DNA from: Naegleria gruberi
Taxonomy: Eukaryota
Reading direction: 5' to 3' (one strand)
DNA length: 64,000 nucleotides
Assembly (NCBI GenBank): GCA_000004985.1
Contig: GG738922.1
Positions within the stretch are counted from its first letter, which is position 1. Each line of letters opens with the position of its first letter. Below the pieces are notes generated by a model that was not told where the DNA came from, did not search any database, and saw only the letters and a list, made by a program, of their open reading frames with translations. Below are positions 2,892 to 58,410 of this stretch, in pieces. Both the position numbers and the translations under genes were made by a program.

Positions 2892-4541
2892 ATGATGTGC
2901 AACAATTATAATTCAACTTCATCATCATCATCTTGTAAACAAGAACTACAAGAACAAATACAAATACCCAATGATATATGTTATGAAATATTATGTTATT
3001 TAAATTCACAACAAATTATTAAAAGTTGTTTATTAATTTCCAAACAATGGTTAAATGTAATTCTTGAAAGAATTAAAAATTTACAATTTTCATTTTTTAA
3101 AAGAGATGATTCTCCATTTTGGTTTTTAAATAGACAATTATATACTTTTAAATTTAATAACTTTAATAGTTTATTATTTAATAATATATCCTCATTGACT
3201 ATATATGGTAATGAACAATATAATTTATTTTTACCATTATTAAAATATTTTAAAAATTTAAAAATATTAAATGTTAATTGTAATCAATTAAGAGATGAAG
3301 GTACTAAAATTTTAGTTAGTGAAATAGATCAATTAACATGTTTACATTTTTCAAATAATTTTATTACTATAGAAGGAATTAAATATTTAACAAGAATGAA
3401 AAATTTAACATTTTTATCATTAGCATCAAATGCAAATAATTTAACATTAGATTCATTTAAAATATTAAGTGAAAATATGTTAAATTTAAAAATATTAAAT
3501 TTATCTGATAATTATTTATGTCAAGAAGAAGTATTTTACCAAATTAGTAAAATGATAAATATTACTAATTTAGATTTAAGTAGAAATTCTATAAAAGATT
3601 GTGGTATTAAATATATAAGTGAAATGAATGAATTAATATTTTTAAATATAACTAATTGTGAAATTAAAGAAGGTTCAAAATATTTAATCAAATTAAGAAA
3701 ATTAAAAAATTTAATAATTGAACAAAATTGTATTGGAGATGACGGTATTAAATTAATTTCTAACAATTTAAAACAATTAACAAATTTAAATATATATTAT
3801 ACTAATATTACTATAAATGGTGTTAAATATATTTGTAATGAATTAAAAGAATTAAAAGAATTAGATATTAGTAATAATAAAATTGGATTTGAAAGTTTAT
3901 TAGAAATTTCAAAATTAAAAAATTTAACAAGTCTTTCAATTAATTCTATTATTAATAATAATAATAATATTTATAATAATAATAATATTGATTGTAATAA
4001 TAATATTGAAAATATTAAATATATAAGTGAAATGAAACAATTAACATATTTAGATATATCATTTAATGATATAGGTGATGATTATATTAAATTTCTAAAT
4101 AATTTAACAAATTTAACACATCTCTCTATAGCACGTAATAATTTAACACATGAAGGTGTGAAATTTTTAAGTGAAAATATTTTTAAAAATTTAACACATC
4201 TCTCAATTGGATATAATTTAATTGGTATTGAAGGTGTTAAATTAATTACTAATAGTAGTATTGAAAATATGAAATGTTTATATATTAGTAAATCAGGAAT
4301 TGATGATGAAGGTGCTAAATATATTAGTAAATTAACAAATTTAAATAGACTTTTAATTGATGGTAATTATATTACTGAAATTGGTGCTAAATATATTGGT
4401 CAATTGAGTGAATTAACACATCTTAATATTAGTGAAAATTTTATTAAAAATGAAGGAGTTTCTTATTTGAGTAATCTTTGTAAATTAAATACTATTGATA
4501 TTAGAAGAAATGGATTGAGAAAGGAGAAGAAGAATAAATAA
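2892..4541 (+). CDS. F-box-like / leucine-rich-repeat protein (RNI-type LRRs), 549 aa
   Basis: N-terminus IPNDICYEILCYLNSQQIIKSCLLISKQWLNVIL is F-box-like. It is followed by more than 15 LRRs with L..L.L..N.I.D.G motifs typical of ribonuclease-inhibitor-like repeats. ATG at 2892. Confidence 0.8.
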   Translation: MMCNNYNSTSSSSSCKQELQEQIQIPNDICYEILCYLNSQQIIKSCLLISKQWLNVILERIKNLQFSFFKRDDSPFWFLNRQLYTFKFNNFNSLLFNNISSLTIYGNEQYNLFLPLLKYFKNLKILNVNCNQLRDEGTKILVSEIDQLTCLHFSNNFITIEGIKYLTRMKNLTFLSLASNANNLTLDSFKILSENMLNLKILNLSDNYLCQEEVFYQISKMINITNLDLSRNSIKDCGIKYISEMNELIFLNITNCEIKEGSKYLIKLRKLKNLIIEQNCIGDDGIKLISNNLKQLTNLNIYYTNITINGVKYICNELKELKELDISNNKIGFESLLEISKLKNLTSLSINSIINNNNNIYNNNNIDCNNNIENIKYISEMKQLTYLDISFNDIGDDYIKFLNNLTNLTHLSIARNNLTHEGVKFLSENIFKNLTHLSIGYNLIGIEGVKLITNSSIENMKCLYISKSGIDDEGAKYISKLTNLNRLLIDGNYITEIGAKYIGQLSELTHLNISENFIKNEGVSYLSNLCKLNTIDIRRNGLRKEKKNK

Positions 4542-10663: not shown

Positions 10664-13600
10664 TCTTTAATAAATTGAATAGTCTTTTGCTTTGGAACTT
10701 GTGGTGATGGATTACTTGGTCTGAGTACTGGTAATGGATTGAATTTGATAATTTCCTGTGATGAAGAGCTTATCGATGAGGAAGGAGCTGAAAATTTGAG
10801 AATTGATTTTCTTATCATGTTCGTATTATTGGATTGTGCAGCTATTGTTGTTGATTGAGATGGAGAGAATAATTTTGGATTAAAATCATCTGCAATTAAA
10901 TCCTTTCTTGTTGATTCATTCATATCAGCCCATTTCAATGAATTATTCTGATTATCTCTTTTCAATAATTTTAATTTGGAATTATAACTTGGTGAACTAA
11001 CTTCTGTTGGGAATTCAAAATCGTCAAATTTACGTTTTCCTAATTGATTTAATTGATTCATTAATGTATTATTTCTAGTTGTTGGTGTATTAATTAATGA
11101 TTGATTTGAAATTGAACTAATATTTGACTTGGTTGGTGTTATAGAACTTTCACTTATTGAACTCAATGAATTTAATAATGGAACAGGTGAAATAAAAGAT
11201 GAATCTAAATTTGATGATGTTTTCATTGGTGTTTGTTCTCTCTTTGAAATTCTACTCTTAGGTGAAAGTAATAAAGATGAGGATGATAAATCATTTGATT
11301 GTTTTTGTGTTCTAGTTGTTGTTGAACTATTAATCATCATTCTATTTGAAACTAATTTAGAAATACTTGGTGATAAAATAAAACTATCTTCCTTTCTAGT
11401 ATTACGAGTATTAAATGATGGTTTTGAAAGAGGTGATGGTGAAAACATTGAAAATAAACCCAATTCTTTTGTTGATGGAATTGTTTTAGGTGTTCCAATT
11501 AAATCTAATTTTGAAATATCAAATTCAGAATTTCTTCTAGTAATTACTTTTGGTGAATTAGTACTACTAATATCATTCATATTATTATTATTTGTAATAA
11601 TAGTATTATTATTATCAATAGTTGATTTCTTTTGAATCCAATCATTTTGAATTTGTTCAATTGCTAAATCTTGTTGATTTAAAATTTCAATTTGATTCTT
11701 AATTTCATCATCTGTAATTTTATCATCAATATCAAGTAAAATCTTTTGAGTTTCCTCTTTTTGTTTTTTAATTAAAGGTTCAAAATCTAAAACTCTACAT
11801 GTAGAAGTATCAAATAAATCTTTTTCATCCACTTGTTCATCATCTTGTACATCTTCCACTTGTTTTAATTCTTCATTGAAATATTTTAATAAATTATTAT
11901 TACTTTCAAACTCATTTGATGATGCTATATTACTAATACTACTAATATCTGTTAATATATTATTATTATTATTATCAATATTATTATTATTAGCAGTATT
12001 ATTATTAGAATTATTATTAGTATTATTCAAATCATTCTTATGATTCATACTATTATCAATATTTACAACCATTGATGACTCTATAATACTATCATCACCC
12101 AATTCTTCTAATACATCTTCTGTTGTTGTTGTAATTGCTTGTGCTACTTCGCCTGTACTAATATCATCAATTACATCAAGAATATTATCCTCCTCTTCTT
12201 CTTCTTTCTCTGATTGTTTCGTTTGACTATTATCACTTAAAGATGATGAATCTGATAATGGTGATTCAGATATGTTTGCTTCAATATCTTCATTTGTTGC
12301 ACTTGTTATTTCCTTAATGATTTCATCAATTTCATCTGTTTGATCATTCTCTTCTTCAGAGAATTCTTCAATAATCTTTGGTTCTTGTTCTTCAATAATA
12401 TTTTCAAGTTCATTGTCTTCCTCTGAAGATTCCTCAATAACCTTTGGTTCCTGTTCTACAATGATATCATCATCACTTTCTTGTTGTTCCGATTTAGATT
12501 CAACAATTTGTTCAGTAGTTGTCTCTGGAGTTTCATCTTCACTATCAACCATTTCAGGAGTTTCATCAGTTTCATTTTCAATAACAACTTGCTCTTCTGC
12601 TACTTGTTCTTCATTATCAACAACTTGCCCTTCAACTACTTGTTCTTCAGTTGTAGAGTGAGCTATTACTTCTTCTTCTACTACGACCGATGGAGGCGAT
12701 AATATTGGAATTTCTTTATCCACTTCATTATTATTATCATTAACAATATTAGATGATGATTCAATTGATTCTTCGTCTTTTTCAATTGTTGTTGTTGTAG
12801 GTGATGTTACAGTAGTATTAATATTACTATCAATATTAATAATTTTACTTTCTTTAGCAAATTCTTCTTCTATTGTTGGTATTGTTGATTCACTTTCATA
12901 TTCTTCTCTGTTTCTCTTTAATGAATTTTCAGATTCAATAATGGTAGTATTATTATTATTATTAGATTCATTATCATCATCAAATTTAATTTCATTCAAT
13001 TCATCTTCATTTTTCACTATATCAATATTATTATTTACTACTACTTGTTCATTCAACTCCTCTATAATCACATGATCAGTATTTTCTACTTGTTCTTCTT
13101 GTTTCTGAATTAATTCTTGTTTTAATAAATTTAAATTTAATTTATAATCCTTTTCAATTAAATATTTTCTCATCATTGATTGTAAAGTTAAAATTGTATT
13201 TAAATCATTTTTTAAATTTACTTGTTCCATTTTACTTTTTAATAAAGATTGAATTATTAAAGTTGATTCTTTACAATCATTTAAATATTTTCTATTCGAA
13301 TGTCCTTCAATTAAATTTTCTAAATTATTTAATAATTTTAATTTTTCATTCTTTTCTAAATTAGTAAATAATCTAATATGATGTCCATTAAATATTGATT
13401 GTAATGTTGTTATACTTTCATTTAATTGTTTTCTGTTATGTAAAACTAATTGATTTCTATATAAGGATTGAATATTTTCTGAAAATTCTAATTTTGAATT
13501 AAATTCCTTTTTAATTAAATAATTTCTAATTAATGATTGTAAAATAATAATATTATTATTAATATTATTAAAATTAGTATTTTCTATTAAATTTCTAAAT

Positions 13601-14558
13601 TTAGATTGTAATATTATTACATTGAATTTTTCATCGTCTAAATTTTTACGTTCCAAATAATTTTTACATAAATTTTGTAATGAAATTAAATGTTCAACTT
13701 GTTTATCCATTTCATGAATTGAATTATATTGTCTAATTATAGATTGAATACTTGTTATATTAATTTCCTTAGAATTTTCCAAACTTGTTGATTCCGATAC
13801 TGATTCTACCATATTACTAGCATTATTATTTATAGTAGTTTCAATTGTAGTTGGTGTTGATGATATTTCTGTTGTATTAATTAATTCTTCATCATTTGAA
13901 GGCTTTGAATTTTCATTTTCAATTTTTTCTTCCGAATTTTCATTACTTGAATCATTAATTAATTGTTCATCGCTTGAAGGCTTTGAAATTTCCTTATTTT
14001 CTTCTTGATTAGATGATTCCTGTTGTTGATTATTTTCATCTTGTTCTTGCTTAGACGATGATTCATCTTGTTGTTTGTTGATGGTTCTAATTCTGTTTGT
14101 TCTTCATGTTCAGAACTATTTTCATCTTCCTGTTTAGATGAAGAAGAGGAAGCCTTTGGTTGTTCTACTTTTTTTCTTCTCCTTGATGATTGAAGCCTAG
14201 ATCTAACAGGTGTTTTAATAATCTTTTCTTCTTCCTCTGGTTCGGTATTTGCAGTCAAGTCTTCATTTACACTTTTAGATTGATTATTCTTCGTTTTATC
14301 AATTTTCTTACGTTTTTGACGTTCCTTTACTGGTGTTTTTAAAATGTTTGAAATTAATGATGAGGCTGATGATAATGTATTAGAAGAGGAGGCATTTGTT
14401 GTTGTACTATTAGATGTTTCATCATTGGTTGTTGATGTGGTTGAGGAAGAAGAAGTAGCATTTGCCTCGGTATTTGCTGTTGTTGTATTTGATGACCTTG
14501 TATCATCGGAAGGTGATGAAGGAGATAATAATTTTTGTCTTCTAGTTTGTACTGGCAT
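10660..14558 (-). CDS. IQ-motif-containing, acidic low-complexity protein; two ORFs (14558..13959 and 13812..10660) probably one gene disrupted by a frameshift
   Basis: ORF 10660..13812 carries at least five IQ-like calmodulin-binding motifs (ILQSKFRNLIE, LQSLIRNYLIKKEF, LQSMMRKYLIEKDY) followed by long acidic/Ser-rich tracts. The frame that contains Met-13812 stays open upstream to about 14100 with the same acidic repeat style (SKPSSDEQLINDSSNENSEEKIENE...). It overlaps the 3' out-of-frame tail of ORF 13959..14558. Confidence 0.5.
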
Positions 14559-14689
14559 TTTTTTTTAAAGTTTCAATTTAGTGATGTAATACTGATTGTT
14601 TCGAAATGGTAAATAATACTATTTACCAAAGAACTACATTTGTCGTGCACGATTAATAAAACAAATAAATCTCAAGTTCTAAACCAGTA

Positions 14690-14880
14690 TGAGTTTAAAT
14701 TCTATTTTTTGGGACAAAAGCGAGGGAAATACTGTGGCCCACCGGCCTATTGGCGTGATAACACTGCCGTTTGTTGCCGGTTCGAACCGAAGCTACTGCA
14801 TGCGTTTGTTAATACATGCACCCAGAAATTGGGCGAAGTAGAGAGTATGCAGTAGATGGAAGTCGGTCACAGGTTTCTCT
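14690..14880. ncRNA. GC-rich structured island, candidate small ncRNA or Pol III element (identity unknown)
   Basis: Local GC is far above its surroundings. There is a nested inverted repeat CTACTGCATGCG...GTATGCAGTAG enclosing CCCAgaaatTGGG, plus palindromes GGCCcaccGGCC and CGGTTCGAACCG (B-box-like GGTTCGAAcC), with a T-run at 14866-14876. The only overlapping ORF is short and atypical. Confidence 0.25.
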
Positions 14881-14930
14881 TTTAAACATACAACCAATTA
14901 AAATTTTAATGTTTGTAATTTCTATCAGAC

Positions 14931-14943
14931 ATAAAAAAGTAGA
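14931..14943 (-). terminator. Pol III oligo-T terminator downstream of the tRNA
   Basis: TTTTTT run 1-8 nt after the discriminator base on the tRNA strand. Confidence 0.5.
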
Positions 14944-15032
14944 AGGCGACTGAGGGAATTGAACCCTCGACCCTCAGTTATCTCAGCATTACTGCCTACA
15001 AGACTGATGCACTGCCACTGTGCTAAGCCGCC
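14944..15032 (-). tRNA. tRNA gene, anticodon UGU (Thr) with a putative 17-nt intron 3' of position 37
   Basis: The reverse complement folds as GGCGGCU/AGUCGCC acceptor stem (one G-U), GCAC/GUGC D-stem, UCAGU/ACUGA anticodon stem with loop CUUGUA[intron GGCAGUAAUGCUGAGAU]A, variable loop GGGUC, and T-arm GAGGG-UUCAAUU-CCCUC. A T6 run (TCTACTTTTTTAT) follows immediately and serves as a Pol III terminator. Confidence 0.6.
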
Positions 15033-15154
15033 TTACGATTATGATTTTTAAAAATACAATACTGTAATATTCCTGTGCGTTAAGTAATGTGTCACCAAAA
15101 TAATAACACAATTAATATTAATATTATTATGGCGCCAAAAAGAAATAAAAATAC

Positions 15155-15358
15155 ATGACTGCAAGAATTGATGAAACAACAAATAGGTTGGCTGCTACTC
15201 TTGATCATGTTCAATTTAATAATCATCTCAATAATGATATATTCCGATTAATTATTTCCTTTCTAGACATTAAGGATTTATGTCGATTCGAACAAGTAAG
15301 CAAGAATAACCTTCCAATTTGTAAAGTGTGCTCAGAAGATTCTGACTTTTGGAATTAA
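15155..15358 (+). CDS. Small F-box-domain ORF (67 aa)
   Basis: DIFRLIISFLDIKDLCRFEQVSKNNLPICKVCSEDSDFW is a complete F-box-like motif. ATG at 15155, TAA at 15356. The ORF lies 5 nt upstream of the GTPase ATG. Confidence 0.5.
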   Translation: MTARIDETTNRLAATLDHVQFNNHLNNDIFRLIISFLDIKDLCRFEQVSKNNLPICKVCSEDSDFWN

Positions 15359-15363
15359 ATACA

Positions 15364-16246
15364 ATGGTTTCGAAATCTTACAATTATAAAATTACTGAAA
15401 CAGATCGTCAACAAATTGGAATGCTCTTGAAGAAAACTGAAGATTTTAAGAAAACATTGAATCTCGCCTTTAAAATTGTAAATGACATTATTGAACGTAA
15501 TTTCAGACAGAGAATGGAAGAATTGGAAGACAGTATACTAAAATATAACAAAAAAGCTGCAAAGAATCAATTCATGACTAGGGATGAATTACTTAGTGTG
15601 GATATTTCAAATTGTGAAATACCGTTAGATGAAAAGCCTTTCAAAATTATTGTAATGGGTTAGTTTGTAAAATTTAACAATTAATGATTAATTTTCAATA
15701 GGGGATGGAAATACTGGAAAAACATGTTTATTGGAACCTTTATTGAAGGGTCAATTCATACAAGATTATGCACCTACTCTTTTCAAAAAAGAGTTTGCTG
15801 ATTTTAATTGTGGAAATTTTCAAGTTACTTATACTGATATTGTAACAGACATTGATTTCCCAAATAATAGATCTCAATTCTATCCAAATACTAAGGCATT
15901 CATTGCAATGTTTAATGTAATGGAAGATTACACGCTCAGTAATTTATTCACACGATGGATTCCAGAAGCAAGACAATATTGTCCAGAAGCAGCAATTATT
16001 GTTGTTGCTTCCAAAGTTGATTTAAGACATGATTTGAGTGCAGTGGAGACATTGAGGAAAAACCATTTGGAAAAACCAATTTCATTCGATCAGGGAGAAA
16101 GAGCATCTACAATTGCCAACTGTTCGACCTATATTGAAACAAGTTCCCTGCAAAACATTGGATTAGGTGATTTGACAGAGTTGGCACTAAAGGCCTATTT
16201 TGTAAATATTTCAAAGGAAAGAAAGAAAAATTGTTTTTTACAATGA
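15364..16246 (+). CDS. Atypical Rho-family small GTPase with N-terminal extension and C-terminal CAAX-like CFLQ; join(15364..15658,15702..16246)
   Basis: Exon 1 ends ...KIIVMG. Donor GTTAGT, acceptor caatAG, 43-nt intron in phase 1. Exon 2 starts GDGNTGKTCLLEPL (P-loop). The Rho-like regions TRWIPEARQYCPEAAIIVVASKVDLRHD and PISFDQGERAS are present. The DTAGQE switch-II motif is replaced by TDIVTDIDF. Confidence 0.7.
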
Positions 16247-16266
16247 AGGTTTTATTGAATTATTGA

Positions 16267-17394
16267 TTACCATCTTCTTTTATATCTTCTATCAACCATT
16301 TTAGATGAAATTGAGGTATAGATTTTGTGTTTAGAAGATAATGAATAGAATTGAATAACAGGTTGAGGTTCAGGAATATCACAAAAGTCAACTATTAATG
16401 ATTTCTTTGGAATTTGTTTAAGTAATGATGATAAGTCTGCACTTCCATCTTCCAAATAATTGTCATCAGACAAATCCAATCTCAACGAATCCAATCCATG
16501 TATTATACCAGAATTGACAATTTTCTCAACTGAGAAGAATGGAAAGTTCAGTAACTCTAAATGTTCCAACTTTGGAAAGTAGGTCCTATTCACATGATCC
16601 AACAATTTTACGTCTATTACATCATCCATAAATTGAACCTCTGATCTGAGAATTAGCAATCTTACATTAGGAAATACAGTGTTCAATTCTTGCATTTCAT
16701 TGAATGAAATATCCAGAATTAGAATATCCTCATTTACATGACTAACATTTGATTCATGTCCATTTAGACCTATTTTCAACACAAAATCACAAGCTTGATC
16801 GATATTTTTTGTTGAATTCACAAGTAATTGATAACTCTTCACTAACCACTTTGTAAATAAATCATCTTCATCTTGATCAACACAATTCAAGAAATTGAAC
16901 TTTTGTTCAATAAATTCTTCTAAATCAACAAGAGTTTCATTCAATACTTGATCGATTTCTGGATAATCAAATAATTCATCCTTTCCAATCAGCTCTTTTA
17001 AAGATCTTTCAATTCCAATCTCTTTCCATAAAACCAATTTACCAACTCTAACCATCATATTCTTCTCATATCCAACTAAATCTCCATCATGTACATGATC
17101 CATACTCTTTTGATTATATCCATTCAATAAGATGTGAAGTTGTTTATCGGCAGCAAAGAGAGCATTTCTCCAAAATGTGGCGTAACCTTGAAATCTAATA
17201 CCACAACAATTTACCAAATTCTTCATGACCAATAAATTGTCAAGACTTGGAATTGTCAAGTTTTCATTGTTGTTTTGAATAAAATTCTTCCACCATCCTA
17301 TGGTTTTTGTTTTGGAATGGAAATCTCCGATAAGAAACCTGAAAATTTCTTGCAAAATATCATCTGACAGTAAGGTGAAATGGTGTGGAGACAT
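16267..17394 (-). CDS. F-box domain protein, 375 aa
   Basis: N-terminus LLSDDILQEIFRFLIGDFHSKTKTIGWW is F-box-like. ATG at 17394. Single exon. Confidence 0.7.
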   Translation of the reverse strand: MSPHHFTLLSDDILQEIFRFLIGDFHSKTKTIGWWKNFIQNNNENLTIPSLDNLLVMKNLVNCCGIRFQGYATFWRNALFAADKQLHILLNGYNQKSMDHVHDGDLVGYEKNMMVRVGKLVLWKEIGIERSLKELIGKDELFDYPEIDQVLNETLVDLEEFIEQKFNFLNCVDQDEDDLFTKWLVKSYQLLVNSTKNIDQACDFVLKIGLNGHESNVSHVNEDILILDISFNEMQELNTVFPNVRLLILRSEVQFMDDVIDVKLLDHVNRTYFPKLEHLELLNFPFFSVEKIVNSGIIHGLDSLRLDLSDDNYLEDGSADLSSLLKQIPKKSLIVDFCDIPEPQPVIQFYSLSSKHKIYTSISSKMVDRRYKRRW

Positions 17395-17797
17395 TTTTTT
17401 TTCTGGTTCAAAATGAAATGGTCACAATTGACCATTGTGGAATCTCATCAAAGTTTCTTTATTTAAACCAAAGCTGCAGAAATACTTTGCAAATGCAAGA
17501 AAGAGTGGACTGTAAATGATTTGCGTAAAATGATTGAGGGTTTTCAAATTAACCCAGGCTTTCAATTTTTTTTTATTGGAATCTCTTTTATTCGAAATAA
17601 GTATTCTTTAAATTGTATCAATTATTCACCAAGCTCATCCGTTATTTCTAAATGGGCTGATTTAACATCTCCATTGACTATCAATTAATCAATTAAATCT
17701 TCAATTCAATATCATCACTTCTTAACGTTTTTTCTCTTCAAATTCAAAAGTAAAAAATTGACATTGTCGTTAAATTATTAAATCATTTACATAAAGG

Positions 17798-19948
17798 ATG
17801 ATGGCTTTAGAGGCAGCTTCATCACCACCTCAACCACAACAACAACAACAAGGTACCTATGGCAATGGTTCGGAGAGTCTACTAGCAAATGTTCTTGTTG
17901 GTAATTCAGGTCTCCATACAACAACAACATCGAAGGCTTCATCAACTTTATCCCTAGGGAAGGGAACAAGTAAGAAGAAGACACAAAGTAAATCATCAAA
18001 ACATTACGGATCATCTAATAGTAGTAGTAGTAGCAACAACAATAATAGTACTACTCATGCTGGATCGGCGATACAAGAAAGAAAGGATGAGGAAATTTAT
18101 TTAGAGAATTTTGTCAAGTGTAGGTTTAATATATTATTATAATATATATTGACAATAATCAACAATTAATGTTTTTATATTGTCATCATCATGATGGAAT
18201 TTTAATTATTTGCTGATGGTGCAACTTAATAATTGATGATGAATAATTACGTTACTTTTATGATAATGTTGTTGTTACTATGTGGTAATAATGTCATTGA
18301 CGGAAATGATATCATTATCTTAGCAATTGAATATTTACCGACAGAAATTAGGAAAGATTTGGGGACAATCAAGGAATTGGATAAGAAAACATCAAGTATG
18401 TGTTTAATTTATTCATATCATGTAGATTCTTACAATTTTGTGCCAAATATCTTGAATGATTTAAACATTGATAATGATATTTCATGATATTTAATGTGAA
18501 TAATAATCATAATCATAGAAAATGTAACTTTATCTACTGAATTAGCAAGTGATTCATCTAAATCTAATGCTGATAGGAGTGAAGCAATTCGTAAATTAAT
18601 GGACGAATCTATTAATTTGAGTACTGAAAAAGTTGACATTTCACAAAGAACACTCAATAAGATTATTCTTCATATGGAAGATTTGGAAAAGAAAATTGAA
18701 GAATTATCACAAAATATTCAACAAAAACCACAAAATACTCTCAAACTAGAATCGCTCTACATTCCACAACTTTCTGAAGATAATCAAGTTCACTATTTCA
18801 CTCCATCAGATCCTAGTTTACAATCTAGTTCATCAAAGAGTAATAAGAGATTGGTTCAACATTCAGAAAATTTAAAAACACTTAAAAGTGGATCTCTCAA
18901 ATCATATCCAGAAAAGGAGATGCATGCTCATGTATTTAATCACACTCCAGAACAAGAAGGAATTGTCAGAGGAAATTCAACTACAACAAGAAGCTATGCC
19001 AGTAGCAGTAGTTCTACAAAGAAGGCAACAGAAAAAGAACCTCCATCTCAAATTACTGTCAAGACATCAACAGGAAGTGTCATTTCTGTACCAAATGATA
19101 GAATTGGAAATGCAGACATTACACTTGCCTCAATTTCATCTGAACAAAAAATTAAGAAACAGAAAAAGACCTCTAAGCCAGAAAATGCCCCTGTAAATTT
19201 AACACCACTCTCTATTAATACTACCAATACTACTATTAGTAGTAGTAGTACTAATGGTTCTAGAAAGGAGAAATATTCCACTAGCTCTATACCAAAAGAA
19301 AATACTCTTGCTTCATCTGAAATCTCATCAATCAAAATACCAAAGAAAGATTCATCTCACACTTCATCAAGTGCTGCCTCTAGTAGTAACAATTCTCACA
19401 CAACCACTCAATCCTCCACTAAGAAATCTAGATCAGCTGCCAGTAGTAGCAGCAGTGGCTCAACTTCCAATGTCGGCAGCAGTAGCTCAGCATCCACAAC
19501 TACTGCTGCTTCTGCTGCAACATCTACAAGTGGTGAACAGTCAAAGAGTGGTAAGAAGAGAAAAGCAATTGCATCCTCAACTACAAGTGGAAAAACCAAA
19601 AAGCAAAAACAATCATCTGCTGCCTCCTCATCCTCCATTTCAACAAGTGTTGCTGCCACTCCTTCAATAAGCGACCAACAAGCTATTCCATCAGCAGCAG
19701 ATGCTGCTGGTTCAGATGAAAATACTCTCATCTATGAAGAGAATTTACAAGATCCAACACCATATTGCTATTGTAAGAAAACTATGGCTGAGGATTCTTC
19801 TGAAATGGTTGGTTGTGATTCTCCAAAATGTCCAAATAATGGGTGGATTCACAAACATTGTCTTCATCCAGGTGAAGATCCAGATGCACCACAATTTTAC
19901 TGTCTCAATTGTAGTAAAACAATGAGCAAGAAGAAAAAAAAGAAATAA
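17798..19948 (+). CDS. ING-family (inhibitor of growth) PHD-finger protein; join(17798..18119,18324..18395,18519..19948)
   Basis: The ING N-terminal region EIYLENFVK|S|IEYLPTEIRKDLGTIKELDKK is reconstructed across two short introns (GTAGGT..cttAG and GTATGT..catAG). The C-terminal PHD finger is YCYCKKTMAEDSSEMVGCDSPKCPNNGWIHKHCL...YCLNC, followed by a polybasic tail KKKKKK. Confidence 0.8.
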
Positions 19949-32471: not shown

Positions 32472-33428
32472 ATGTCTGAACTGTTGCATCGAACCCTTTC
32501 GCACGATGCCCTGATCGACATTCTCATTTTTTGCCACGACGATTTAAAATCAGTGATGAATTTGGCATCAACTTGTACAACACTTTATGCTGCAATTACA
32601 GAATGCTCTGAACGGTTGTGGATTTACATTTTGAATAAGAAGTTCATGGGTAGTAGAAGGGAGAAGAAGGGATCCAACAAGAGGAAGAATAGAAAGCCAT
32701 TGGTAAAAGAAAAGACACTTTCGATATTGGAAAATAGTACTGGACTTTCGGATAGAAGTAAACAAATAATTTCCATAATAAGAACACAAGTAAGATTTGA
32801 AAGGAAACATCAAATTTTGAAAGGATATTATGAGGAAAGAGATTTTGCTAAATACAAATACTTTTCAAATTTGAATATTAAGGATGATTATATTTGGAAA
32901 TTGCTTAAAAGGGAAATGGTAGAATCTAAGGCAATTTACTCACCAGAAAATATAATTAAGGAGAAATTTGGAAATTCACCAATTCAACTGATTTATTTAT
33001 ACTTTAACGGTAGCATGTACACTGTGAAAGAATTCATAGATGCCATATTTAGGAAAGAAAATGCTCATCTTGAATTAAATATTCATAACAGAACCATTTC
33101 TTCATATCTTTACGATTATTGGAAAGAAAACCGCAAGTCAAAACTGGATTTCAACCAGGAGCTATCCAACTTTATACGTTACACACGTATTTGTCAAGAC
33201 ACCAACGATTCTTTATTATTTATCAAATTAATCTATTTAGAATTTCCAAATGTAATGAATGGTTCAAATCAAGAAACAGCATACGAACAAGAGAAACACA
33301 CTAAAGGAAGTTTCAAAAACACATTACTCTACTTTAAAAATTATCTTGCCAATGTGCAAGAGGCAGTGAATATTTTCGCAAAGGAGCTCTATGGAAACAA
33401 TATTGATTTAAAAGTTTACAATCGATAA
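32472..33428 (+). CDS. F-box domain protein, 318 aa
   Basis: N-terminus LSHDALIDILIFCHDDLKSVMNLASTCTTLYAAITECSERLW is F-box-like. ATG in aaaaaaaaATG context. Confidence 0.7.
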   Translation: MSELLHRTLSHDALIDILIFCHDDLKSVMNLASTCTTLYAAITECSERLWIYILNKKFMGSRREKKGSNKRKNRKPLVKEKTLSILENSTGLSDRSKQIISIIRTQVRFERKHQILKGYYEERDFAKYKYFSNLNIKDDYIWKLLKREMVESKAIYSPENIIKEKFGNSPIQLIYLYFNGSMYTVKEFIDAIFRKENAHLELNIHNRTISSYLYDYWKENRKSKLDFNQELSNFIRYTRICQDTNDSLLFIKLIYLEFPNVMNGSNQETAYEQEKHTKGSFKNTLLYFKNYLANVQEAVNIFAKELYGNNIDLKVYNR

Positions 33429-34457: not shown

Positions 34458-36160
34458 TTATTTCTTTTCCTTAGGTTTTAATGAAGACAAAACATCATCA
34501 ATACGGAGAATTAAACAAGAAGATTCAATAGCAGTCTTCATAGTTTGGACCTTAACTTCATATGGTTCCCAAATCTTGAGTTCAGCAGTGTCAGCGATAA
34601 CACCCTTGACACCATCAACACCCAAGTTGAGGTTTTGGTCATTGGCATGCTTGGATCTCAATTCAGTAATAATACGAATAGTATTAGCACCACAGTTTTC
34701 AATCAAAGTTCTTGGTATCACTTCCAAAGCAGTAGCAACAGCTTGATATGGGAGTTGTTCAATACCCTTGATAGACTTTGACTTTTGCATCAAGTGTTGT
34801 GAGACACTCATTTCAACAGCACCACCACCTGGAACAACACGTGGATCAACAAAGATATTCTTAACAACGTGCAAAGCATCTTCCAAATTTCTTTCAATTT
34901 CATTCAAAATATCCTTACTACCACCTCTCAAAAGAATAGTACAGGCCTTTGGATCCTTACATTCTTCAATGAATGAGAAGTATTCATCACCAATCTTTCT
35001 AACTTCGAACAAACCAGCACCATTACCAATGTCGGATTCCTTAATTTCTGAAGTTCTAGAAACAATAGTAGCACCAGTAGCACGAGCAATACGATTGTTA
35101 TCAGTCTTTCTAACACGACGGAGACAACTGATGTTATTCTTGATAAGATAATATTGAGCCAAATCAGAACATCCCTTTTCGGTAACGACAAGGTCTGGCT
35201 TGAATTTGATGATATCGTCACAAACTCTCTTAATCCATTCGTCTTCCATTTTAAGCAAAGTTTCAAAGTCTTCTTCCTTTTCCAAAACAACATTAGTTTC
35301 ACTTTCACCCTTCTTATATTCAAGAGGGCAATCCAAAAGCAAAACTCTTGGATTTTCAATTCTTCTTCTCATCTTTGGATGGAGGATATCCTTGTTAATC
35401 ATGACACCATTCAAAACTCGTGATTCATTCAACAATCCACCTGGAATCTTTTCAATACGAGCATATCTCTTAACATCAATATCCTTCTTTCCATTTTCCA
35501 TATCAGTTGCTACAGTTTTAACAGCTTGAATAGCCAATTTACACATCAAATCACTGTAACGATGAGTGAATTTTGTTCCTATACTTGTATTTACGATTTC
35601 AGCAACTTCTTCATAGTTATTTACGTCGATCTTTCTTGACATCTTTTCTGAAATAAAGTCAACAGCGTCTTCAAGAGCCTTCAAGAAACCCTTGACAATA
35701 CGAGTTGGGTGAATCTTACGTTGCAACAATGGTTCGGCAACTGTAAGAATTTCACCAGCAAGAATAATTACTGAAGTAGTACCATCACCAACTTCTTCAT
35801 CTTGTGTTCTACTCAATTCAATCATACTCTTAGCAGCTGGGTGAGTAACATCACATTCTCTCAATATTGCGTTTCCGTCGCTAGTAAGTTGTACAGTACC
35901 CATTTGATCGAGAATCATTTTCAACATAGCCTTTGGTCCTAATGTAGTTCTTACAATAGAAGCAATAGCCTTGGCAGCTTGAATGTTAGCCAATTGGGCC
36001 TTTGTACCTTGTTCTCTCTTGGAGTTACCCTCTATATAACATTAAAAACATTAAATGTTGAAATGATGATGGAAAGGTTATTCATATTGTTATTATTGTT
36101 GTATTCAATATGTTGTTGTAGTGTAAAATCAGTGATACAAAAATGAACGGAAAATTCATG
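34458..36160 (-). CDS. CCT3: T-complex protein 1 subunit gamma (CCT3/Cct3p chaperonin); join(36140..36160,34458..36029)
   Basis: Exon 2 (GNSKREQGTKAQLANIQAAKAIASIVRTTLGPKAM...GDGTTSVIILAGE...) is about 65% identical to CCT gamma over its full length. A putative 7-codon exon 1, MNFPFIF (compare yeast MQAPVVF), joins through donor GTATCA and acceptor tatagAG across a 110-nt intron. Confidence 0.85.
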
Positions 36161-52354: not shown

Positions 52355-55300
52355 TTACTTTTTCTTTCTCTTCTTCTTGTCGTTATGTTTCTTCTTGTTT
52401 GATGCTGATGATGAGGTAGTAGTAGTTGATGGACGTATTGGAAAAGTATATGGTATCTGACCATTGATTTTCCACATGAGAGGAATATAGGGCATTATTT
52501 GGGTTTCTGTTATTGCTCCATGCTTCTCATAGTCTGAGTGAAGATCATAGTAGAATTTCTGTGGTAGCCCTCTCGGAATGTGGTCAGGAGTTGATTTCCT
52601 GTATTCAACAAGCAAATGAACCAAGGACTCATTAGGCATCTTTTGAATTAAAAATCTGTAGTCCTTCAAGTTGAACTTTTGGAAGAGGGTGATCAATTTA
52701 GTCACTTCTGTTAGAATTCCATAAACCATTTGTACAGATAATTGAGGTTGGAAACCAATATTGGACCCTCCAAGCACAGCCAGTGAGGATAAGTTTGAGG
52801 TTAACATATTGGACCAATATCTTTCATTTTCTTCTTCTTCATCTTCATTGCTTGGAAGAATGTCTTTGATTCTTTTGAATTCAGTTCTGCAAACTCTGTT
52901 CTGGGCTACATCGACACGAGTGAGTACAGCTGCAGAAGCTGGCCTCATGAAAACAACAGACCACCACTTGGCAAGTTCACTCTGTGTAGATAACTCTAAA
53001 CCTTTTTCAGTTTGATATTCCAATTTGGTCATTAGCTTGATAGCAGTTGGCCTATCCGTTTTTACATCCATATTAGCTCCATCGAGTTTGGTTCTGATCA
53101 ACAATTTCAAATTTGCAAGTGTAAACAAATTGTAAGTTATTGGCTCTCCATCTCTGTGTAAGAGTTCATATTGTGAATAACTATCATTCTCATTGTATTC
53201 AGCCTTAGAAATGAGTGGATTGCAAGGTATGTGTATGAGTGGTTCCTTCAATGCAAGTGTCTTAATTGTGTATTTGTAATAAATTTGATTGTTATCTCTG
53301 AGAGTCCAGGCCTTTTTAATCATGGGCTTGTCAATAAATACTGTGAACTGTGATTCATCTGATTTTGGCTTGGCAATGACAGGTAAGCACCACTCCTCAG
53401 AAAATGTTGGGCCTAGTGTGTTGATCATTGCAGTGAGAGCACTGCTAGCACAAACGAAATCAATATCTGTGCATTGAGGAAGGATGGATTGTAAAATGAT
53501 AGGATCCTCGCTTACATTTGGAAGAATACGATGATGATAAAGGTTGGCTGTTGGTGTACTCTTCTTTTTTGATTCCTCAAATGGATTATATACATTTTCT
53601 GTAGGTGGAACAATTAATTCTTGTGTTTGATCTTCTAAATTATTTGGATTTAAAGATGGATCATTAACTTGGTAAACATTTGTTCCTATTGGGAATTTAG
53701 GAAGCTTTACAGGCTTGGAAGGTGTTTGTGTCTCAGATTCCTCATTGTTATCTTCATCAGCTGAGGCAACATCTTCATCTTGTGCCTGGTATAATATTTG
53801 ATTTCTGTGGAATTGGAAATATTTATCTGTGGTCTGATAAATGAGTTTTGAAAATCGAAGAATAGGGTCAGCAAATGAATTTCCAAGGGCTTGCTTGGTT
53901 TGTTGGAGTTGAGCAATACCAAGTGTTTGCCAAAGTTCAAAATGTCTTGGTAGGGCTCCAGTATTTTCCAAACTGGTTGCATTTGTGGGTAAAATTCTTT
54001 CAAATTTTCTCTTCTTTTTCATCTTGTCCACTTGATCAGAAATATATGGATCAATAAAAAAGTATCTAGTTTGTCTATTATTCCAAGCATCGTCAAATAG
54101 AGCTTTTCTAAAGGCAGCTTGCTCTTCCTCAACAACTTTCTTTAATTTGAAAAAGTATGCAGATGGAGGTGAAACCTGTTTTGAAAGGGCATTCTGATTT
54201 TGGAATAATTTAAATTGTTTGAGTCCCTTCATGTAAATATCTTGGTCATTCTCATCCAAACTTGATACTTTGCCTAGGTGAAAGAGTGGATTCTTTTCAG
54301 GTTGAAGAGGTTTCTTCTTTTGCTTCTTCTCTTTCTTGTTCTTTTGTGATTTGGATGAATTAGAATTTGGCTGTTGTGATTGGGGTTGTTGAGCAGGAGT
54401 ATAGCTATCAATAATAGGATTAGATTCTTCGGCACTATTTTCTTTCTTCTTTTCCTTTTTCTTTCGTTTCCTTTTCTTTGAATTACTTTCTTCCACTTTC
54501 TCTGCAACAATAGGTTGAATAGTTTGCTGAGTTTTTAGATTGAAAACAAGAGGTGCTGGAGGAGGTTTCGTCCTTGCAAGAAGTGGAATAAGTGGATTAT
54601 ACTCAATAATTTGATTCATATCTTTTTCTTCTACTGGTTTAGTTTCAGTAATAATTGTTTGAAATACCGGTTGGCTTGAGATAACCTCCTTATTTGGAGT
54701 ATTCTGTTCTGTAACTATTTTCAAGGGAACAGATTCTCTTTCAGTTGGCTCTAATGGTGGAATAATTCTAGTTTGCTCTGAAAGAGTTTCAATTCTATTC
54801 TCCTGATTATTAGATACTATTGGTGTTAGTTCATCTTGAACTGAATCAAGCCCTCCGATTTCATAATTGTCATCTATCATGTATAAATTCTCTGGTTCCT
54901 CCTCACTATCGGAATCTTGTGATGAAAAATCAACTCTTTCTTGTTGTTTAATATTAGTAATATCACTCCTTTCCTCATCAGTTATTAAAGTATGAACAAG
55001 TTCTTGTTCCTGAACGATTTCCTTCTTCTTTAATAAATCTTTAGAATATTCGAAAAGCCTTTCCAATTGTTGCTTTCTATCTGGTTTTAAAGAAGGCTCT
55101 ATTGAGAAATGTTTCAACAATTTACTTTCCATGTTTGGTGTTACATCTTCAATATAGTTATGCTCCTGACTATAATTCATCCAATGAAATAAATATTTAG
55201 AATTTGATGCACTCGAAGCTGTTGAATAATTTCTTGTTAATCTTTTAATTGGTTCCACATTCGGTAAATCAGACAATGATTTTAAATAATCAAAGTCAAC

Positions 55301-55525
55301 CTCATAATTTTCAACATTTTCCAATTTTTCCTCGTTACTATTAGAATTAAATCCGTTAATTGTTCTTCTAATACTTTCGCTTGGTATTTCCAAATTTGCT
55401 GGCAAAGGAGAGAGTACTCTTCTTCCTTCATTCATTAGTTTAAATTCACTAGAAATTTCCTCTAAATTAATTATCATCTCTCCATTATCTTCCGTTCTAT
55501 GATTTGCTTCATCCTGACTCATCAT
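52355..55525 (-). CDS. Large hypothetical protein, 1056 aa (basic KKRK-rich middle, conserved-looking C-terminal half)
   Basis: Uninterrupted ORF with ATG at 55525. Contains a polybasic NLS-like stretch. No confidently recognised domain. Confidence 0.7.
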   Translation of the reverse strand: MMSQDEANHRTEDNGEMIINLEEISSEFKLMNEGRRVLSPLPANLEIPSESIRRTINGFNSNSNEEKLENVENYEVDFDYLKSLSDLPNVEPIKRLTRNYSTASSASNSKYLFHWMNYSQEHNYIEDVTPNMESKLLKHFSIEPSLKPDRKQQLERLFEYSKDLLKKKEIVQEQELVHTLITDEERSDITNIKQQERVDFSSQDSDSEEEPENLYMIDDNYEIGGLDSVQDELTPIVSNNQENRIETLSEQTRIIPPLEPTERESVPLKIVTEQNTPNKEVISSQPVFQTIITETKPVEEKDMNQIIEYNPLIPLLARTKPPPAPLVFNLKTQQTIQPIVAEKVEESNSKKRKRKKKEKKKENSAEESNPIIDSYTPAQQPQSQQPNSNSSKSQKNKKEKKQKKKPLQPEKNPLFHLGKVSSLDENDQDIYMKGLKQFKLFQNQNALSKQVSPPSAYFFKLKKVVEEEQAAFRKALFDDAWNNRQTRYFFIDPYISDQVDKMKKKRKFERILPTNATSLENTGALPRHFELWQTLGIAQLQQTKQALGNSFADPILRFSKLIYQTTDKYFQFHRNQILYQAQDEDVASADEDNNEESETQTPSKPVKLPKFPIGTNVYQVNDPSLNPNNLEDQTQELIVPPTENVYNPFEESKKKSTPTANLYHHRILPNVSEDPIILQSILPQCTDIDFVCASSALTAMINTLGPTFSEEWCLPVIAKPKSDESQFTVFIDKPMIKKAWTLRDNNQIYYKYTIKTLALKEPLIHIPCNPLISKAEYNENDSYSQYELLHRDGEPITYNLFTLANLKLLIRTKLDGANMDVKTDRPTAIKLMTKLEYQTEKGLELSTQSELAKWWSVVFMRPASAAVLTRVDVAQNRVCRTEFKRIKDILPSNEDEEEENERYWSNMLTSNLSSLAVLGGSNIGFQPQLSVQMVYGILTEVTKLITLFQKFNLKDYRFLIQKMPNESLVHLLVEYRKSTPDHIPRGLPQKFYYDLHSDYEKHGAITETQIMPYIPLMWKINGQIPYTFPIRPSTTTTSSSASNKKKHNDKKKRKKK

Positions 55526-56487
55526 GGAGCATGTCTATTGTTTTATTTTTTTGTGAAGTTTTTTGCTTCATCTTCAATTTTAGGATTTGCTTTTTGGAGA
55601 GTTGTTTGATGATTCCAAACAAAAATCACTAGTAATAGTAAATAGATGATGTTGTGAAAAGTTTGGTAGCTTCAGTATGTTAAATAATTGAAACCACTCG
55701 AAGAACTCGAAGAATCATTAAAGTACATCCGTACTTGATGTTGAAATGTTTTTTTCATTTTCTTCTTTATTCCATTAGACCTTTTACAATCACAACCTTA
55801 CCTGTCAAATCTGATGATTTCAGTAACTCTTCATTGAAATTAGACCTTTAAAATACATTCTAGCAAACTTAATGCCAACACTTTCATTTATGAATTTGGC
55901 TTGTTCTATAGAGTCATTAATGGATTTTCAAAATCTAGTCTGCTTCGTTTGATCATTTTTTTGACAGTTTTCTTCGTCATACAATTATTAAGAAATAATC
56001 AAAGTGGTTGCCCTTCTTATAGTTTCCTGTGATTTCTCGCTCTGTTAAATAATAAAAACCACTTTTGAAAAACTCTCAAATTGACTAACACACATTTCCT
56101 CTCAATGCTAAATGCACAACAATAACAGAGGTTAACTAAAAAACACAGAAAATAAGGAAAAAAAAGACTACAGCACCACAGGTTCCCAAGTTGTCTCCAA
56201 CCTCAGTACTGATGTGGCTCGACGATGCTTAACTTCTCAAATCGGACGGGATGAGGTGCATTCATCGTGATATGGCCGTAGCCATTTATTTCCTTAATGC
56301 GATGAATAAAAAGAAGTTTGTGACACAAAACAAGAAAACATGAACTTATCAAGCTTGTTACAGCTACACAATACTCTCGGTTTGTCAAATTCTTCAAAAA
56401 CTGGCTTGTCCTGAGCTGAATTGCAAAGATTGGGAGCAGTAAATTGAAAAATTAATTTGGTGTTTGGTTGAAGAGGAATGAAATAAT

Positions 56488-57954
56488 TTATTCATCATAG
56501 TCTTCATCTTCTTCATCTTCATCGTTGGAGTAAACTTCATCTTCGTCATCTTCATCAAAGGTTGGAATCTGCTCGGGAGTTGTGTTATTTTGTAAAGATT
56601 TCAAACCCTCCAAATCATGCAAGTAAATGGAAAGCAGTTCATCATTAGCCTCAATACATGAGTTGTGGTTTGGATTACTCGAGTTGATTGTTTTCACAGA
56701 AGGCATTGTAAAGCATTGAGATTGTGAAAATGGACAAATGTACTTCTTGTCAATGAATTCTTCATACTTGTTTTCCTTATTCTTGACAGCTCTAGATTCG
56801 TCATCATCTTCATCGTTTCTGTTAGAGTTCATTAGGGGTGAGCGAATTTGTACTGTTCCAGCTTCCTTCTTCTTGTTAAATAAGGTGTATTCATTGTAAG
56901 GACCTGGAGCATTTAGGAAAATGATAGTGTCTCTTTTTGAAAGAGAATCAGACCACATGGTCAAGTACTTTCTTGTCTTGAGTTTAAAGTGTTCTTCTTG
57001 CATTCTACGAATTTGACTACCAACGGACTTGGCTCTCTTACTTTGATCTTTGGAAACTTGTCTTTTTCCTTGCTTTTTTCTAGTGACATACTTGTGGAAA
57101 GTTTTGTGTACAGTGGCGACCATTGGCTCTGCATTCTTTTGCTTTCTTCCATTTTTCTGGAACACACAACCACTGAAAGAACCACCATGACAGAAAATAA
57201 CACAAAATCCCTTCTCCAAAAAGTGATTCTTCAAATCTCTCAAAAAGAATTGGAAATCGTGATGATAATTCAAAGACATGATCATCTTGATACGATCTGT
57301 TGAATTTTCAAACACTTCTCTCAGCTCAGTGTCCATTCTCTGGTTGATTGAATGATTTTTACAATCTTCATAAATATACTTGAAAATTTCATAATAAATC
57401 TTGAAACATGAAATAAATAGTGGAATTTGTGTATCAACTTGCAAAACAATTTTTGTCTGATTTACGCCTGAAATTGAATGAAACTTGCAAGGAATCTTCA
57501 AAAGTAATGATGATGTTGAACAGAGTGGATTCTTACCATAGAAGGAATTTTCAACACCTTCCTTCATCAATTCATATAATTGATGATGAGCAGATACTAA
57601 TTCATACCATTGCTTGTTCACCAGAATTAATGAAAGTAATTCTTCAGATATTTTCTTTTCGGAAGCCTTTTTCTTCTTCTTTTTCTTTTTTACTTCCACT
57701 TCATTATCATCATAAATTGAAAAATCCATCAAATATAATAATATATGATTAATCACTCTCCGATTATGAGACAAAATTAAACCCTTTTCTTTACGTTCTT
57801 CCATAAACATGAATGTTTTTTGTGAGGGAGATTGATCAAAATCCTCATCATCATCGTCCTTGTATTTGATCCTCTCTCGCATCAGAGTAAATTGTTTACG
57901 GTCATAGGTTTTATTCACTCGATCGACAAAATTTGATAAATGTTCAAAACTCAT
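56488..57954 (-). CDS. VLRF1-domain protein (Vms1/ANKZF1-like peptidyl-tRNA hydrolase of ribosome quality control) with F-box-like N-terminus and acidic tail
   Basis: VIFCHGGSFSGCVFQKNG...VHKTFHKYVTRKKQGKRQVSKD...GSQIRRMQEE aligns to the Vms1/ANKZF1 catalytic core (HAGrFAGaiF ... HKTFHRYTVRAKRGGSQ ... LRRYNE). The N-terminal LLYLMDF...ISEELLSLILVNKQWYELV is F-box-like. ATG at 57954 in aaaaaaaATG context. Confidence 0.65.
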   Translation of the reverse strand: MSFEHLSNFVDRVNKTYDRKQFTLMRERIKYKDDDDEDFDQSPSQKTFMFMEERKEKGLILSHNRRVINHILLYLMDFSIYDDNEVEVKKKKKKKKASEKKISEELLSLILVNKQWYELVSAHHQLYELMKEGVENSFYGKNPLCSTSSLLLKIPCKFHSISGVNQTKIVLQVDTQIPLFISCFKIYYEIFKYIYEDCKNHSINQRMDTELREVFENSTDRIKMIMSLNYHHDFQFFLRDLKNHFLEKGFCVIFCHGGSFSGCVFQKNGRKQKNAEPMVATVHKTFHKYVTRKKQGKRQVSKDQSKRAKSVGSQIRRMQEEHFKLKTRKYLTMWSDSLSKRDTIIFLNAPGPYNEYTLFNKKKEAGTVQIRSPLMNSNRNDEDDDESRAVKNKENKYEEFIDKKYICPFSQSQCFTMPSVKTINSSNPNHNSCIEANDELLSIYLHDLEGLKSLQNNTTPEQIPTFDEDDEDEVYSNDEDEEDEDYDE

Positions 57955-58410
57955 TTTTTTAAATTTGTTTTTTGAAATGTAAAAATAGAAAACTCTCAAG
58001 ATTATCCTTGAAATTGAAATAAATGTTAAAGTATTTTTAGATATTCATGTTCACTTCTAAAGTTGAACTCTTCATTTCCAATTGGAATAAAATTATAGAA
58101 ATCATAAATTCCAGGTTCTAATAACATTTAACATTTGGTCAACCATGTTTGACATGAGTTTCATCTTCACAATTTAATTATAATGTGTTTCAATATTAAC
58201 ATTATAATTCGTTAAATTGCTTCTTGTTAGAATGAAATTAAAACTGTTCTTTATTAGTGCTGATATGTTCCTGCTGTAAGAAAAGGTCGAGCTATTTATT
58301 TTTAACAATAACAGTCATTATAATCAATTGCGTCCAAATAATCTATTGGACAGGCAAAATTAAACTCAACGAAAGTAGACTATTGAACGGAGCCATCTTT
58401 AAAAAAAAAT

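Follow-up and report, generated by a model that had tools for sequence, protein, structure and literature searches.

We propose, with moderate confidence, that positions 14722-14883 on the plus strand of the DNA analysed here hold the gene of a small, structured orphan RNA of ~162 nt, putatively outside the described families. The window, as we call the whole stretch, comprises 64,000 nucleotides of contig GG738922.1 from Naegleria gruberi NEG-M, an AT-rich heterolobosean amoeba. We infer that the candidate RNA is transcribed, the probable polymerase being Pol III, directed by A- and B-box-like elements inside the gene, and that it ends in oligo-U. The proposal draws on composition, fold stability, strand asymmetry, the geometry of promoter-like motifs and invariance in one relative, and the rival explanations considered below each account for fewer of these observations.

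The G+C content of the candidate block is 49%, against ~27-31% in its flanks. In windows of 100 nt, G+C is 0.51 and 0.48 across 14700-14849 and 0.27-0.31 on both sides; in windows of 120 nt, the island forms the highest G+C peak of the 64 kb (0.52), followed by a 5S rRNA gene (0.51). The two other intergenic peaks of this kind that were found are tRNA and 5S rRNA genes. A sequence-only reading of this DNA had described a GC-rich, highly structured island at 14690-14880, next to a tRNA gene. The enrichment and the position are borne out by both window sizes, while the limits need to be moved, the functional boundaries lying nearer 14722-14883. The coordinates of the candidate and its surroundings are collected in Table 1.

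Table 1. Features of the candidate RNA gene and its immediate surroundings.
Feature	Position	Strand	Remarks
AT-rich conserved upstream block, possible promoter region	14638-14721	+	TTTAAAT at about -28 to -22; 2 substitutions vs L001
Candidate small RNA gene, ~162 nt	14722-14883	+	Predicted three-way junction, terminal stem, UUUU end; fold, invariance in L001
P1, 5' strand, GAGGGAAAT-A-CTGTGGCC, A14731 bulged	14722-14739	+	Pairs with 14865-14881 in MFE and centroid structures
A-box-like TGGCCCACCGG (consensus TRGCNNAGTGG, 2 mismatches)	14735-14745	+	+14 from predicted 5' end
Arm P2: ACCGGC/GCCGGT helix around 7-bp hairpin TGGCGTG-ATAA-CAC-T-GCCG (14751-14769)	14741-14781	+	MFE and centroid structures
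B-box-like GGTTCGAACCG (consensus GGTTCGANNCC, 1 mismatch)	14779-14789	+	+58; part of CGGTTCGAACCG palindrome
Arm P3: 11-bp stem 14793-14803/14845-14855, extended by CCG/TGG	14787-14859	+	Sequence, predicted fold
P1, 3' strand, GGTCACAGGTTTCTCTT	14865-14881	+	Pairing in predicted fold
TTTT, candidate Pol III terminator	14880-14883	+	Directly after terminal stem; kept in L001
tRNA-Thr(UGU) gene, 17-nt intron 14980-14996	14942-15033	-	Convergent with candidate RNA, 58 bp away; own T6 terminator

The plus strand of 14722-14883 folds with a minimum free energy (MFE) of -62.2 kcal/mol (z = -4.66), a stability reached by 0 of 200 dinucleotide shuffles, and the centroid structure coincides with the MFE structure. 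When 790 non-overlapping windows of 162 nt, covering both strands of the 64 kb, were folded as background, the island had the lowest MFE by 12.7 kcal/mol, the next value being -49.5 kcal/mol. Background z-scores, which are noisy at 20 shuffles per window, were at or below -3 in 9 of the 790 windows (~1%). The most extreme of them (-4.85, from 20 shuffles) belongs to 3403-3564 on the plus strand, a segment with a G+C of 0.15 within the span of an ORF for an LRR protein (2892-4541); the segment is possibly intronic or an AT-rich inverted repeat.

In the predicted structure, the two ends of the island are joined by a 17-bp stem, P1, of which the sequence-only reading made no mention. Written as RNA, GAGGGAAAU-A-CUGUGGCC pairs with GGUCACAGGUUUCUCUU, after which comes UU; one A is left bulged. 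The nested long hairpin of that reading is recovered as arm P3, where CTACTGCATGC (14793-14803) pairs with GTATGCAGTAG (14845-14855) and the stem opens to a large internal region with a small apical hairpin, CCCA-GAAAT-TGGG (14821-14833). Its two palindromes are also present, as GGCC-CACC-GGCC (14736-14747) and CGGTTCGAACCG (14778-14789). The octamer CGUUUGUU occurs twice, at 14768-14775 and 14803-14810, and is mostly unpaired at both places; by our estimate, a repeat like this has a chance expectation of about 1 in 5. Since the island is identical in the sole relative compared, the structure is so far a purely thermodynamic prediction.

The two strands of the island, which the sequence-only reading had suggested folding separately, behave very differently. 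The plus strand is exceptionally stable, whereas the minus strand reaches -46.8 kcal/mol (z = -2.1), 15 kcal/mol worse. Of the 17 pairs in P1, 4 are plus-strand G.U or U.G wobbles, which the minus strand would present as A.C mismatches; across the main helices P1, P2 and P3, the plus strand has no A.C opposition, and G.U accounts for all departures from Watson-Crick pairing. Moreover, the A>T change at 14716 in the related contig L001, described below, converts the only minus-strand TTTT to TTTA and leaves the plus-strand TTTT unchanged. Because of the modelled energy gap, the G.U pairs and the loss of the minus-strand T4 in L001, the evidence points to the plus strand as the likely sense strand of the candidate RNA.

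A B-box-like element and a T-run, as expected of a Pol III gene with an internal promoter, are present on this strand, together with an A-box-like string, and a probable Pol III transcript, as first suggested from the letters, is the best-supported reading of the island. An A box would be sought about 10-20 bp from the start, and TGGCCCACCGG lies at +14, but matches of its quality are common (104 in the 64 kb, 111 expected) and weak when taken alone; this one is notable only by its position, 44 bp 5' of the B-box-like element. The latter, GGTTCGAACCG, departs from the consensus at a single position and lies within the palindrome CGGTTCGAACCG, as had been noticed, and this palindrome occurs nowhere else in the 64 kb, with 0.08 occurrences expected. 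B-box matches number 7 in the 64 kb, against 2.3 expected. The B box of the tRNA-Thr gene (14955-14965) matches GGTTCGANNCC as well as GGTTCGAACCG does, and the four other matches with one mismatch, including GGTTCGATGCA at 32485-32495, look like chance occurrences. Measured from start to start, 44 bp separate the A-like box from the B-like box; this is the spacing of tRNA genes and falls within the 30-60 bp looked for between such boxes, and TTTT follows at +159. Boxes and TTTT stand in the correct order on the plus strand only, the order of the boxes being wrong on the minus strand. The TTTT, which is the terminal T-run of the sequence-only reading, is of a kind that can act as a Pol III terminator, although it is weaker and shorter than the T6 of the tRNA-Thr gene and the T8 of the 5S rRNA gene.

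Other short motifs were seen around the Pol III genes. Upstream of both the tRNA-Thr and the 5S rRNA gene (15034-15093 and 56284-56340, minus strand), a 7-mer, GTGACAC/GTGTCAC, is found at about -35 to -63, and the block preceding the island has, at about -78 to -71, the palindrome CGTGCACG, which is related to it; sharing of this type of motif is probably due to chance. A match to the dictyostelid DUSE promoter motif (PMC3188802), TCCCAAAA on the minus strand from 14718 to 14711, was dropped because the host is Naegleria. The candidate RNA and the tRNA gene are separated by 58 bp, of which 14897-14910 form a perfect 14-bp AT palindrome, ATTAAAATTTTAAT, flanked by AAACAT...ATGTTT; it is unchanged in L001 despite 4 substitutions elsewhere in the spacer.

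Searches with the flanking proteins returned a single contig, near-identical to the locus. This relative, L001, is a 4.3-kb metagenome contig from ENA with ~94% identity to 13584-17912. Between the two, the island shows 0 differences in 162 nt, and the 734 nt of flanking intergenic DNA carry 42 events, counting substitutions and indels. The intergenic rate predicts 9.3 events in the island, and the Poisson probability of finding none is 9e-5; when the rate of the coding regions, 0.018 per nt, is taken instead, the invariance falls short of significance (P = 0.056). Therefore, the sequence of the candidate RNA element appears to be constrained at least as strongly as the adjoining exons. The near-invariant block, 14638-14915, exceeds the island and contains only two substitutions, at 14716 and 14721, which lie 6 nt and 1 nt before the predicted 5' end. 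To the left of 14638, L001 lacks the 17 bp of 14621-14637 and has 4 bp inserted at 14593.

The same comparison revealed changes at the neighbouring tRNA-Thr(UGU) gene. Its 17-nt intron, at the canonical position 37/38, is precisely missing from the otherwise identical tRNA of L001 (2912-2986), and to judge from these sequences there has been a recent gain or loss of the intron between close strains. In addition, L001 carries a 23-bp insertion (~2875-2897; after 15043), 10-35 bp upstream of the 5' end of the tRNA-Thr gene, which contains the 15-mer CCGGTTCGAACCGAA. This 15-mer is found inside the island at 14777-14791 and otherwise nowhere in the 64 kb or in the N. lovaniensis and Willaertia loci.

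Combining these features, we can outline how the putative gene would work. TFIIIC would recognise the A-box-like element at +14 and the B-box-like one at +58, whose 44-bp spacing is that of tRNA genes, and Pol III would start near G14722 and stop within the TTTT at 14880-14883. The ends of the transcript would then pair as the 17-bp stem with its bulged A, closing a three-way junction that would carry the short arm P2 and the long arm P3, with a 3' oligo-U tail left over.

A small structured non-coding RNA, as opposed to a protein-coding sequence, is the part of the sequence-only reading that remains best supported, by the fold, the strand asymmetry, the invariance in L001, the A- and B-box-like elements at tRNA spacing with TTTT after them, and an ORF without real protein relatives. 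The longest ORF across the island has 71 aa and, among 1.84 billion protein representatives, has only chance matches to repeat proteins, one of which is apparently a translated tRNA-like repeat; since it lacks real protein relatives, the island is taken as not coding. The specific RNA classes named in that reading fared less well. All 4227 covariance models of Rfam 15 were run over the 64 kb at gathering thresholds, where only 5S rRNA and tRNA were found, and then at E<=10, where no match within 14400-15100 overlapped the island core and 0 matches fell in 14700-14900 (201 nt). The absence of a covariance-model match even at E<=10 is an outcome that the earlier reading had counted against itself.

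The proposals of an snRNA- or snoRNA-like gene are not upheld by these scans. Sm-class snRNAs (U1, U2, U4, U5, U11 and U12) were rejected, there being no Rfam snRNA match and no ACUUAC. Such RNAs would show a single-stranded RAU3-6GR between stems near the 3' end and, in U1, a 5' ACUUACCU. The Sm-like AAUUUCUGG pointed out in the sequence-only reading does exist, from 14830 to 14822 on the minus strand only, that is, on the strand that folds worse; it lies in the loop of the CCCA/UGGG hairpin and not in a single-stranded linker, with ~100 nt on its 3' side. A C/D snoRNA was rejected by eye, as no C (RUGAUGA) or D (CUGA) boxes lie near the ends of either strand, and an H/ACA snoRNA, for which nothing convincing was seen, because a 17-bp stem from end to end is incompatible with the two-hairpin layout, in which an ANANNA hinge joins the hairpins and an ACA stands 3 nt from the 3' end. 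The U4 5' stem-loop, SRP RNA, hammerhead and GIR1 ribozymes, 6S RNA, tRNA-Sec, telomerase RNA and RNase P/MRP were also rejected for lack of an Rfam match. Where one of the rejected families was also compared by eye, its defining sequence motifs were missing too.

A tRNA-derived element finds as little support. ARAGORN makes no tRNA call on the island at its default or at an 80% threshold; at 70% it makes a tRNA-like call with a 3-bp T-stem and 5/7 acceptor pairs. A tRNA was rejected, there being no credible cloverleaf and the Rfam tRNA model being silent; a true cloverleaf would have a 7-bp acceptor stem, D, anticodon and T arms, and a 7-nt T-loop on a 5-bp stem. Further, SINE-like copies, which had been suggested as a check, were not found either: no second copy was detected in the 64 kb by BLAST, nor in 146 kb of Naegleria and Willaertia DNA by a covariance model built from the island. 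With respect to SINE traits, there is no A-rich tail, the only flanking repeat is a trivial TTTAAA, and the island is single-copy in the 146 kb searched. A scan of JGI metagenomes with the A-box/B-box pattern gave 23 matches, all on contigs with 52-75% G+C, which are probably bacterial and have nothing beyond the pattern in common with the island. Exact pieces of the island were absent from the prokaryote genomes and viral contigs scanned. At the CCT-gamma loci of N. lovaniensis and Willaertia magna, nhmmer, BLAST and the covariance model found no copy of the island; these loci are syntenic with 34-47 kb only and stop short of it. In the literature on annotated Naegleria ncRNAs, nothing was found that covers the locus.

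Several explanations compete with a plus-strand RNA gene. The island might act as DNA, through an ETC-like or other protein site at CGGTTCGAACCG and GGCC-N4-GGCC that bounds or organises the stretch from the tRNA gene to the divergent protein gene, or it might be part of the latter's promoter. We consider this unlikely, although the B-box-like motif is part of a perfect 12-bp palindrome unique in the 64 kb, which counts against the RNA gene in that CGGTTCGAACCG could equally be a DNA-level protein site. The second CCGGTTCGAACCGAA near tRNA-Thr in L001 suggests that the motif has an independent life beside Pol III genes, and conservation does reach into the AT-rich flanks (14638-14915). However, a protein site would leave unexplained the 162 invariant nt at 49% G+C, the 17-bp end-to-end stem and the one-strand G.U bias, since a DNA palindrome would be strand-symmetric. 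The decayed remains of a tRNA-derived or mobile element (a SINE-like insertion, for instance, or a tRNA pseudogene) that came to lie beside a tRNA gene, with little or no transcription and no function of its own, would account for the box motifs at tRNA spacing, the weak ARAGORN call at 70% and the TTTAAA hexamers on either side (14695-14700 and 14880-14885), in a locus that is prone to indels, as the tRNA intron and the 23-bp insertion that differ between strains indicate. Nevertheless, the lack of a credible cloverleaf (3-bp T-stem, 5/7 acceptor pairs) and of any match to the Rfam tRNA model, together with the failure to find a second copy in the 64 kb and a further 82 kb of heterolobosean DNA, makes this origin improbable. 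It also leaves the island invariant where the flanking intergenic DNA changes, and an A-rich tail is missing, while the TTTAAA repeat is trivial in AT-rich DNA.

An RNA read from the minus strand is a very doubtful alternative, whether it is taken as an Sm-class snRNA-like molecule whose Sm site would be AAUUUCUGG or as a product transcribed together with tRNA-Thr from the DNA downstream of it. The Sm-like string at 14830->14822 is real, the island is downstream of tRNA-Thr on that strand, a TTTT follows the stem there as well, and the U1 of N. gruberi was hard to find in a 2008 screen, requiring an unfiltered Infernal search (PMC2396436). Yet the minus-strand fold (-46.8 kcal/mol, z = -2.1) has helices broken by A.C mismatches, and the Sm-like string is confined to a 5-nt hairpin loop; the ~100 nt and two hairpins that follow on its 3' side are not what snRNAs show. 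Neither an ACUUAC-type 5' end nor a match to the Rfam models of U1, U2, U4, U5, U11 and U12 at E<=10 was found. Read-through from tRNA-Thr would have to pass its T6 terminator, which precedes the island, and the minus-strand TTTT is lost in L001. Finally, it is highly improbable that the island owes its high G+C and its self-complementarity to chance and is functionless. Some 1% of background windows do reach z <= -3 and no RNA family matches, but the island is an extreme outlier in both G+C and MFE over 64 kb, has 0 changes where ~9 are expected at the intergenic rate, and presents a coherent motif geometry.

The candidate RNA gene lies in a wider locus, parts of which were compared with other species. 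The ORF at 16267-17394 (minus strand) is identical over 375/375 residues to N. gruberi XP_002669816.1. The CCT-gamma ORF at 34458-35993 (minus strand) is 92% identical to the protein of N. lovaniensis and 88% to that of Willaertia magna, and N. lovaniensis contig PYSW02000002.1 runs collinear with 34.4-47.1 kb. On the minus strand, 56165-56283 is a stand-alone 5S rRNA gene (Rfam, 105 bits), which ends in a T8 terminator and is located between a bVLRF1-like gene (56488-57999) and a gene with a NARG2_C domain (52355-55525). In N. lovaniensis, the bVLRF1 gene adjoins CCT-gamma, and five other genes lie between the bVLRF1 and NARG2_C genes. The order of these genes differs; therefore, this part of the region has been rearranged between N. 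gruberi and N. lovaniensis.

Inventories of ncRNAs in Heterolobosea are based almost wholly on Rfam homology, and because of this, lineage-specific RNAs are invisible in them. If the candidate is a real and abundant Pol III transcript, it would represent a new RNA family in a deep-branching eukaryote that is used for the reconstruction of LECA, and the first small RNA gene of Naegleria with an internal promoter besides tRNA. The RNA itself would then be a handle for the pull-down of protein partners. If it is untranscribed, TFIIIC-type sites in N. gruberi could still be pursued from the recurrence of CCGGTTCGAACCGAA beside Pol III genes.

Comparison with known systems shows partial likenesses of different kinds. 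The telomerase RNA of ciliates is a Pol III transcript of ~150-200 nt, with a closing stem and a 3' U-run. The candidate is similar in size, closing stem, oligo-U and likely Pol III origin; unlike telomerase RNA, it has no single-stranded complement of ~1.5 copies of common telomere repeats and no recognised pseudoknot. Its 5' GAGGGAAAU-A-CUGUGG resembles CR-I and the 5' strand of P4 of RNase P (bacterial GAGGAAAG-U-CCGGG), including the one-base bulge and a 3' CACAGG partner. However, the RNaseP_nuc and RNase_MRP models give no match at E<=10, and at 162 nt the candidate is far too short for RNase P or MRP, of which it has only the CR-I-like string; P3, P8/P9 and an ordered CR-II, CR-III and CR-IV were not recognised. 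Moreover, P4 is an internal, long-range helix, whereas the matching helix of the candidate is terminal. With tRNA genes, SINEs and BC1-like RNAs, it shares the 44-bp box spacing, adjacency to a tRNA and a tRNA-like G+C. Unlike these, it has no cloverleaf, no match to the tRNA model and a single copy in the DNA searched, and its ends pair where those of SINEs do not.

The closest architecture is that of the vault and Y-type RNAs, even though no test placed the candidate in those families. Y RNA and YrlA, which are bound by Ro60/Rsr, have in common with the candidate a long end-to-end stem, a single bulge and a 3' oligo-U. YrlA further includes a tRNA-like module, in which GGUUCGA is the T-loop sequence; the GGUUCGAACC of the candidate forms no T-arm. 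The bulge of Y RNA is a conserved C in the Ro-binding helix, whereas that of the candidate is an A outside such a helix sequence, and the Y_RNA and YrlA models, if among those of Rfam, gave no match. Vault RNA (RF00006, Pol III type-2), which is associated with MVP and TEP1 in the vault particle, is likewise small, with A- and B-box elements inside, paired ends and a 3' oligo-U. The Rfam Vault model does not match the candidate at E<=10, and vault RNA has a length of ~84-141 nt (PMC8287541), against 162 nt for the candidate, whose B box is separated from the 3' strand by an additional arm of ~70 nt. Outside the boxes, vault RNA sequences are little conserved (PMC3762200). Naegleria shares its place in Discoba with the trypanosomes, and Trypanosoma brucei has a vtRNA (PMC12547018). 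The MVP of Naegleria is present in short forms only, of ~530 aa, with no full-length MVP (PMC12547018, PMC3762200).

We regard it as rather unlikely, at this level of detail, that the island encodes an undescribed, heterolobosean-specific Pol III RNP RNA that is either a vault- or Y-type counterpart, bound by a TROVE protein, in spite of the truncated MVP of this lineage, or a highly divergent stand-in for an essential RNA missed in Naegleria by the standard models. In more general terms, a closed terminal stem with an oligo-U tail is shared by vault, Y and 7SL RNAs among other stable RNP RNAs made by Pol III, and for this reason the candidate RNA, by analogy, would most likely be a protein-bound scaffold rather than a base-pairing guide.
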